From the NCBI RefSeq assembly GCF_988243305.1, contig NZ_OZ547136.1: a stretch of 64,000 nucleotides of DNA. One strand, given 5' to 3'. The position numbers and the translations under genes are program-made. The notes under the pieces are model-generated. The model saw nothing but the letters and a program-made list of their open reading frames with translations. It did no database searches and had not been told where the DNA came from. Numbering within the stretch: position 1 is the stretch's first letter; every line of letters begins with the position of its first letter. Positions 44,316-45,412 of the stretch are shown piece after piece.

Positions 44316-44547
44316 CGTTTATCTCTCTTGTTGTACCGAATGCGCGAATTCACGCGTTTTATGCTCGCGGGGTAACATGACATGCTCGAATTACAGAAAA
44401 ATAACTTTTTTGTTACATTTGTAAGATAGTAAGGTGTCAGAAAGATGACAAGGCGGTGACGGCGTGGGTGAGGGAAAATGGGAGATGGGGCACGGATAAT
44501 GCTACGTTGGGGAAAATTAACGCGCCAGAGACTATCTGGCGCAGCGC

Positions 44548-45294
44548 TTACTGAACAATACTCTGCTTCAGCCGTTCATTGGCGGTCTTAATCCATTCCC
44601 GGTGGTGTTTTCTATAATGCGGTCTTGAGCGTTTAGCCGTATCAACCACGGCAACATACTGCTCGTTGGCTTCACGTAACCGACTCATTTTCGCCAGCAT
44701 TTCCGCATAATAAATACGCGCCTGCGGGCCGGGGTAATAAGAAATCAATACTTCAAACTCGCTTTCCGCATCAGCGTATTTTTCTTGTGCGGCTAACGTT
44801 CTGGCAAATAACAAATGCCCGTCTGCCGACTGAAAATCAGGGTTATAACGCATCACATCTTCCAGCGTCTGCTGACAGGCGGCGAACTCCTGAATAGCAA
44901 ACTGCGCCTGCGCCAGGCTGAGCATCATTGCCGCTTCATGGACGAATATCCCGCTTAACGCCTGCTGATAATGGGGAACGGCTTCGTGATAACGCCCCAG
45001 ACGCGCCAGTTCATTAGCCAACGCATAATGGTTTTGATTCGTCTCGGCAATCGCCATTTCTTCGGTTAATTTGCGCAGGTGGCGCTCAGGGTTGACTTTG
45101 TCCTGCAGGCGCATCAGCAAAGTATGCCCGTGACGGTCAGCGCCCGTTTCAGGCAGCATCACTATGACGAAATACGCCACGCAGCCAATCACCGGAAAAC
45201 AGAAAATGATAAAAATCCAGTACCGCTCTTGTCCGGTACGGTAAGCGTGAATACAGCAAAGCAGTTCAAGCATGACAACAACGGCATAATGCAT
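44548..45294 (-). CDS. hypothetical membrane-anchored protein (PLD-N-like TM hairpin plus helical TPR-like domain)
   Basis: 248-aa ORF; N-terminus has two hydrophobic helices around a W-x3-I-x4-P-V-I-G-x3-Y motif; the rest is alpha-helical-looking with Y/A/E/Q repeats. I do not recognise a gene at this position in the K-12 order. Confidence 0.5.
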   Translation of the reverse strand: MHYAVVVMLELLCCIHAYRTGQERYWIFIIFCFPVIGCVAYFVIVMLPETGADRHGHTLLMRLQDKVNPERHLRKLTEEMAIAETNQNHYALANELARLGRYHEAVPHYQQALSGIFVHEAAMMLSLAQAQFAIQEFAACQQTLEDVMRYNPDFQSADGHLLFARTLAAQEKYADAESEFEVLISYYPGPQARIYYAEMLAKMSRLREANEQYVAVVDTAKRSRPHYRKHHREWIKTANERLKQSIVQ

Positions 45295-45412
45295 GGGAGG
45301 GAACCTTTCCGTGGCAAATAAGTGGTCTGGTTTTAATCCTCCCGGTCAGTTGAAACAAGTCTGTATACGGACGAAAAGCCCGGCAGAACGTGGCTGCCGG
45401 GTATTCGATAAT

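Follow-up and report, generated by a model that had tools for sequence, protein, structure and literature searches.

Between ugpB, whose start lies at position 44315, and livF, whose stop lies at 45413, the analyzed window (64,000 nucleotides of contig NZ_OZ547136.1) carries one gene, and the best explanation, to which we give a probability of about 0.55, is that this gene is a functional single-gene unit encoding a membrane-tethered adaptor built of tetratricopeptide repeats (TPR), with the TPR domain probably located in the cytoplasm.

The livF–ugpB interval (44316–45412) contains a single long open reading frame on the minus strand, with an ATG start and a length of 747 nt including the stop codon (44548..45294). 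This is the 248-aa reading frame of the original prediction, and the same CDS is present in RefSeq at the identical locus of strain NY1601 (the same 747 nt; WP_072674641.1, 100% identical). The description of the ORF as unplaced did not survive, since the gene is annotated in RefSeq, is orthologous to ECs_4300 (NP_312327.1) of O157:H7 Sakai, and occupies the same site in other Escherichia and in Citrobacter; further orthologs are WP_000558842.1 in O157:H7 EDL933 and WP_000558838.1 in O7:K1 CE10. It is thus already known as an annotated and catalogued gene, the RefSeq product names of its copies being “tetratricopeptide repeat protein” or “hypothetical protein.” To judge from its full-length homologs and its dN/dS, the ORF is a genuine gene and not a chance reading frame: the frame is kept, with dN/dS of 0.125–0.137 among three E. 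coli lineages differing by dS of 0.06–0.20, and full-length homologs of about 245 aa are found down to about 30% identity. For Citrobacter-level relatives, dN is 0.16–0.23, dS being saturated at this distance. Hence, where the gene is retained, it is under purifying selection.

The gene is equipped with signals of its own. A Shine–Dalgarno-like GGAAAGG at 45310–45304 precedes the ATG by 10 nt. On the livF side, a terminator-like hairpin of livF followed by CTTTTCGT (45379..45401, minus strand) parts the gene from the liv operon; on the other side, its own terminator-like hairpin, TGCGCCAGA...TCTGGCGCG followed by TTAATTTTCC (44521..44543, minus strand), lies upstream of the ugpB promoter. The comparative alignment of Escherichia with Citrobacter freundii shows conservation upstream of the gene only in the block ACAGACTTGTTTCA ... 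GGAGG(A/T)TTAAA, and it also suggests a candidate weak sigma-70-type promoter, TTGTTT and TAAAAC with a 17-nt spacer (45330..45358, minus strand). A scan with the promoter consensus yielded no match from the livF terminator down to the ATG, this candidate being left unflagged as well, and no Rfam family matched within the livF–ugpB interval. Taken together, the hairpins on both sides and the conserved upstream block are best explained by the gene forming its own single-gene transcription unit.

In the 5′ leader (45295–45341), GGGAGG at 45343–45338 can pair with CCTCCC at 45300–45295, immediately ahead of the ATG, and the Shine–Dalgarno sequence is overlapped by a smaller GGAA/TTCC pair. This inverted-repeat arrangement is kept within Escherichia but not in C. 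freundii; because of this lack of conservation, we dropped the GGGAGG...CCTCCC repeat as a translational control element.

Codons 1–50 (45145..45294, minus strand) are predicted to form a two-helix membrane hairpin, based on the AF2 helices, the Pfam PLDc_N match, and conservation. The AF2 model, built on an alignment of 30 relatives (mean pLDDT 87.7), places the hairpin helices at residues 2–20 and 23–50, the latter kinked at P34 (23–32 and 34–50), with 12 further helices following. The corresponding layout consists of TM1 (residues 2–20) with His16, a basic loop from R19 to R24, and TM2 (residues 26–48) with W26, P34, G37, Y41, and P48. The original prediction had proposed a hairpin of the PLD-nuclease type; the two helices are borne out by the model and by conservation, whereas the likeness to PLDc_N extends to the second helix only. 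Indeed, Pfam PLDc_N (PF13396) matches residues 26–44 with E = 6.9e-4 and 20 bits, covering only model positions 22–40 of 42 (19 residues); among the 30 relatives it is matched in eight at E ≤ 1e-3 and in 16 at E ≤ 0.1, the best value being 2.2e-5; and hhalign aligns residues 23–47 with residues 37–61 of ClsA, that is, 25 columns of TM2, at a probability of 21%. The similarity to PLDc_N thus appears weak and confined to the second helix, where it is marginal by HMM, while the architecture and the motif fit: two transmembrane helices with conserved W, P, G, and Y in the second one, a feature of the PLDc_N architecture, are seen both in the model and in the alignment. The motif given originally is present as well, with its spacing corrected by one residue to W26-x3-I30-x3-P34-V-I-G37-x3-Y41.

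It is in this hairpin that the protein has its most conserved residues. In the family alignment of 173 sequences, W26, G37, and Y41 are each retained in 172, H16 in 169, P48 in 168, and P34 in 162, and the basic character of the inter-helix loop is equally stable, with R or K at position 19 in 165 members. Since conservation is stricter in the hairpin than in the TPR domain, the hairpin is probably more than an anchor.

The C-terminal helical, TPR-like domain of the original prediction is confirmed by Pfam, Foldseek, and profile matches. About four TPR-like helix pairs are encoded by codons 84–222 (44629..45045, minus strand), as supported by the Pfam matches, the AF2 helices at 86–222, structural and PDB-profile matches, and conservation. 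Pfam TPR_19 (E = 2.5e-5), TPR_1 and TPR_2 (both 1.3e-4), and TPR_16 (matched twice) fall within residues 89–210, and TPR_19 is recovered in 28 out of 30 relatives at E ≤ 1e-3. The AF2 model has pLDDT above 90 over residues 80–240, which form paired helices; the order is a low-confidence linker (51–53), two linker helices, four helix pairs (86–222), and C-terminal capping helices. Foldseek against PDB retrieved exclusively TPR proteins (CTPR, MamA, OGT) with probability 1.00 and TM-scores of about 0.5–0.85 on the target, and a profile search of PDB sequences likewise retrieved only generic TPR proteins, the best natural ones including PA4667 (5e-9) and YbgF (1e-5). As both the repeat profiles and an all-alpha right-handed superhelical fold are found, the protein belongs to the TPR superfamily.

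Within the repeats, two stretches stand out by conservation. In the window protein they read N151-P-D-F-x-S-A-D-G-H-L-L-F-A-R165 and Y186-Y-P-G-P-Q191, and the respective family consensuses are N-P-D-F-x-S-x-D/E-G-H-L-L-Y/F-A-R (residues 151–165) and Y-Y/F-P-G-x-E (186–191). In the standard TPR numbering, the helix A residues that line the groove are those at positions 2, 5, 6, and 9. By analogy, we infer that the conserved D/E158, L161, L162, and R165 would occupy these groove positions 2, 5, 6, and 9 in helix A of the third repeat.

The domain is closed by basic C-terminal capping helices with the pattern R-x-x-H-Y-R-K-x-H-R-E-W234 (codons 223–248; 44551..44628, minus strand), delineated by their charge and by the conservation of W234, which is found in 156 out of 173 members. 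The calculated pI of the last 34 residues (215–248) is 11.0 vs. 5.0 for the TPR core, and over the last 35 residues, the family has a median net charge of +4. The basic C-terminal helix could lie on the anionic lipid of the cytoplasmic leaflet.

On which side of the membrane the TPR domain resides can be addressed by charge, although the bias gives an ambiguous answer, the loop and the flank following TM2 both being basic: the family means of K+R are 2.15 in the nine residues of the loop and 3.13 in the 15 residues of the flank, the N-tail is uncharged, and the net charge of the loop is +1.65. In addition, the cysteine count of the soluble domain is odd in about half of the family. From the K+R distribution, the odd cysteines, and the basic C-terminal helix, we lean, by about two to one, towards a cytoplasmic rather than a periplasmic TPR domain. 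The opposite topology, with the N-terminus and the TPR domain in the periplasm and the basic loop in the cytoplasm, would make the protein an envelope adaptor in the manner of CpoB/YbgF, NlpI/LbcA, or YfgM, and we consider this a serious though rather doubtful alternative. The consistently basic loop, with its conserved R/K19 and its mean of 2.15 K+R, would fit a cytoplasmic location of the loop, the top NCBIfam match is that to tol-pal YbgF (E = 3e-7), and the best natural PDB matches include PA4667 and YbgF; however, such matches fall far below the family cut-offs (31 bits vs. 90 for YbgF) and are of a kind that any TPR domain gives, the flank following TM2 has more K+R than the loop, the soluble domain has an odd cysteine count in about half of the family, the protein has neither a signal peptide nor a lipobox, and the strongly basic C-terminal helix fits the anionic cytoplasmic leaflet.

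Under the preferred reading of a membrane-tethered adaptor with a cytoplasmic TPR domain, the product would be a small inner-membrane protein whose two-helix hairpin of the PLDc_N type inserts in the cytoplasmic membrane and keeps about four TPRs, capped by the basic helices, at the membrane surface, where they most probably face the cytoplasm. TPR domains are scaffolds to which proteins and peptides bind, and the protein may serve to bring a partner encoded at another locus to the inner membrane. In the third repeat, the groove with D/E158, L161, L162, and R165 would bind a peptide or protein common to many Pseudomonadota; that the partner is encoded elsewhere and is widespread in this phylum is suggested by the conserved groove combined with the absence of a conserved neighbor (see below). 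Beyond plain anchoring, H16, W26, and Y41 of the hairpin may contact a membrane partner or lipid, as the related hairpin of cardiolipin synthase might.

The family to which the protein belongs is large and uniform. A profile search over 1.84 billion representatives yielded at least 676 clusters (50% identity) at E ≤ 1e-30, almost all of 240–255 aa and matching end to end. The family is widespread in Pseudomonadota, its named carriers belonging to Gammaproteobacteria (among others, the Pseudomonas oleovorans/alcaligenes group, Xanthomonas, Luteimonas, Lysobacter, Xenorhabdus, Gilliamella, Methylomagnum) and Alphaproteobacteria (among others, Bradyrhizobium, Rhodopseudomonas, Maricaulis, Rhodospirillales). 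The longer members P0063, P0167, P0175, and P0188 were rejected as informative fusions, being frameshifts, misplaced starts, or linker insertions. The structural twins in the AlphaFold database are all family members with automatic names only, one of them labeled “Lipopolysaccharide assembly protein B,” and several family members are labeled “Cardiolipin synthase N-terminal domain-containing protein” in UniProt. A literature search on the locus tags, PLDc_N/PF13396, and the domain pair returned nothing relevant beyond a passing mention of PF13396 in the paper on the SHOCT domain, according to which PF13396 often occurs in short non-enzymatic proteins (PMC3581485).

For gene neighborhoods, we considered six homologs on their contigs and 80 loci retained from a scan of 100,044 species genomes; in 84 loci, the ORFs up to 5 kb away from the gene in both directions were called and grouped by BLASTP. 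No neighbor family common across lineages was observed among the 84 loci, in agreement with the proposal of a single gene without partners. Synteny is seen only within genera, with the liv/ugp genes in enterics and MscS, PnuC, LysR-type, and FAD-monooxygenase-like neighbors in Pseudomonas, and several neighbor clusters in high-GC genomes are spurious antisense ORFs. Next to the family gene, there are usually divergent or convergent genes or gaps of considerable size.

A more ambitious reading, which we would call improbable, is that proteins combining the PLDc_N hairpin with TPRs constitute an unrecognized widespread family of Pseudomonadota, in which the nearly invariant hairpin (His16, Trp26, and Tyr41), common to them and cardiolipin synthase, targets or senses a lipid environment or a membrane enzyme, and the TPR groove recruits a core cellular protein. 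If so, the family would represent a new membrane-localized regulator of lipid or envelope homeostasis, and it would have escaped study because K-12 happens to lack the gene.

The distribution of the gene among E. coli was assessed by megablast of the interval against 5426 complete genomes. The full-length locus is found in 658 of them, and all others match only the 184 bp beside ugpB (44316–44499 of the window). Taken by itself, the CDS occurs in 659 genomes (about 12%; it is missing from 88%), with 660 matching places, all of them chromosomal and none on a plasmid; each genome has one site, except for one genome with two. An intact, full-length annotated CDS was found in 59 out of 60 sampled carriers, which include O157:H7, O55:H7, O145:H28, an ST38 strain, and CE10; we take these to represent phylogroups E, D, and F. 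That K-12 has no gene here, as originally suggested, agrees with the spacer length in the K-12-lineage genome O16:H48, where livF and ugpB are separated by 398 gene-free base pairs. Carriers are set apart from K-12-type strains by a segment of 913 bp (44500..45412), which in the alignment with the latter is replaced by 214 bp. This filler is unrelated to the 913-bp segment and is found at this site in 4630 genomes; as it recurs within each genome, at 11 places in the median, it is of the REP/BIME type. The original prediction had named a known conserved backbone gene as counting against it, and this applies by half, the gene being conserved and catalogued, but variable within E. coli.

The allele of the window is present at ≥99% identity in only one complete genome, that of NY1601, from chicken feces. 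In carriers of the O157:H7 type, the stretch from the gene to the ugpB promoter exceeds that of the window (44500–44547) by ~127 bp, and the last codons of their protein encode SVVQ vs. SIVQ in the window. The short 3′ flank of the window is the form seen in the cryptic Escherichia clades and E. whittamii.

The same gene order, livF–gene–ugpB, is found in C. freundii, whose protein is 75% identical, in an enteric metagenome genome with a 67%-identical protein, and in Pseudocitrobacter, Citrobacter sp. NCU1, E. whittamii, and two cryptic Escherichia clades. Since the order is the same in other Escherichia, Citrobacter, and Pseudocitrobacter, the comparison indicates that the gene is ancestral at this site in the Escherichia/Citrobacter group and has been lost in most E. 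coli, K-12 included, rather than inserted in the carriers. In the type strain of E. albertii, NBRC 107761, the ortholog at the same site is frameshifted after about residue 186 and is a pseudogene, and in strain ECO2947 the gene is split by IS3; both are signs of ongoing loss. As the gene is missing in 88% of E. coli, frameshifted in E. albertii, and once split by IS3, it is dispensable.

These losses, along with the failure of the scan to detect a consensus promoter, are what could be expected if the gene were a decaying relic, that is, a frame that happens to be open here and no longer does anything in E. coli. We consider this very unlikely given the dN/dS of about 0.13 between lineages that are 0.06–0.20 apart in dS, the full-length CDS that is intact in nearly all sampled carriers, the conservation of the start, the Shine–Dalgarno sequence, the upstream block, and the terminator, and the retention of every family-invariant residue.

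In the spacer of C. freundii, the TPR gene is followed by two small ORFs that lack annotation (93 and 135 aa) and by a Phd/YefM–Fic toxin–antitoxin pair; in related species, the livF–ugpB site gathers accessory genes. Such additions, the variable presence within the species, and the GC3 of 0.55 vs. 0.65–0.68 in the flanking livF and ugpB might suggest the cargo of a horizontally acquired islet, e.g., a defense or toxin–antitoxin hotspot, inserted between livF and ugpB, but this is the least probable explanation, as the position is identical across several genera, integrase, tRNA, or direct-repeat boundaries are lacking, the overall GC content of the gene, 50.1%, is the same as the average of the window, the 660 matching places all lie on chromosomes, and the protein matched none of the PADLOC families and PHROGs only at E = 0.23.

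The gene marks a polymorphism at the livF–ugpB junction that reflects the loss of an ancestral gene and not an insertion, and nothing suggests a new kind of system at this locus. The family is large and tightly conserved in its length and membrane hairpin, and the genetics of one carrier could provide the first function for several hundred sequence clusters.

Two further observations concern the surroundings of the gene. The spacer between ugpB and ugpA (42824–42998) is 175 bp long in the window vs. 97 bp in the K-12-lineage genome and contains an element with 42-nt imperfect terminal inverted repeats (42840–42881 and 42957–42998) that are 74% complementary and rich in CCCTC/GAGGG. In full length, it is present in only 317 out of 5426 complete E. 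coli genomes, and about 2000 genomes have fragments of it at one to four places, a few plasmids among them; the element has the look of a small MITE-like repeat that was inserted within the ugp operon. In O157:H7 Sakai, an acetyltransferase and antitoxin pair (ECs_4307/ECs_4308) lies between panM and the gene for a livJ-type binding protein and is another small accessory insertion in the liv neighborhood.

Among known systems, the closest counterparts of the TPR part in terms of sequence profiles are CpoB/YbgF, represented by the tol-pal YbgF match, and PA4667, which we take to be the LbcA adaptor. CpoB/YbgF and LbcA/NlpI are secreted proteins or lipoproteins with signal peptides, whereas the protein described here has a membrane hairpin instead. 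Accordingly, it was not assigned to CpoB/YbgF (TIGR02795), a periplasmic family with a signal peptide and an N-terminal coiled coil, which it matches with 31.1 bits vs. the cut-off of 90.1, in the TPR part only, its N-terminus being a hairpin and not a signal peptide; membership in NlpI/LbcA was likewise rejected, the relation being one of functional analogy only.

LapB (YciM) and YfgM are inner-membrane TPR adaptors that have a single transmembrane helix and organize other proteins; in LapB, the TPRs number about nine, and the C-terminus bears a zinc site of the rubredoxin type. The protein resembles them by analogy, in the general design of an N-terminal anchor that holds a TPR domain at the inner membrane. 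It differs from LapB in its size of 248 aa, about four repeats, the hairpin anchor, and the lack of C-terminal CxxC pairs, and neither family appeared among the NCBIfam or PDB matches, so that membership in LapB/YfgM was not retained.

Both ClsA and the protein described here begin with two hydrophobic helices, the second of which bears W-x7-P-x2-G-x3-Y; after the hairpin, ClsA continues with the enzyme and our protein with TPR repeats. Identity with cardiolipin synthase was rejected, as TIGR04265 scores 12.3 bits vs. a cut-off of 290, and the protein has neither a PLDc Pfam domain nor HKD (HxKx4D) motifs. Stand-alone membrane proteins with PLDc_N, e.g., YxlE of B. subtilis, have the hairpin domain without a PLD enzyme. 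These small proteins are 60–170 aa long, some have a SHOCT tail, and none has TPRs; what they have in common with the protein of the livF–ugpB interval is the hairpin domain.
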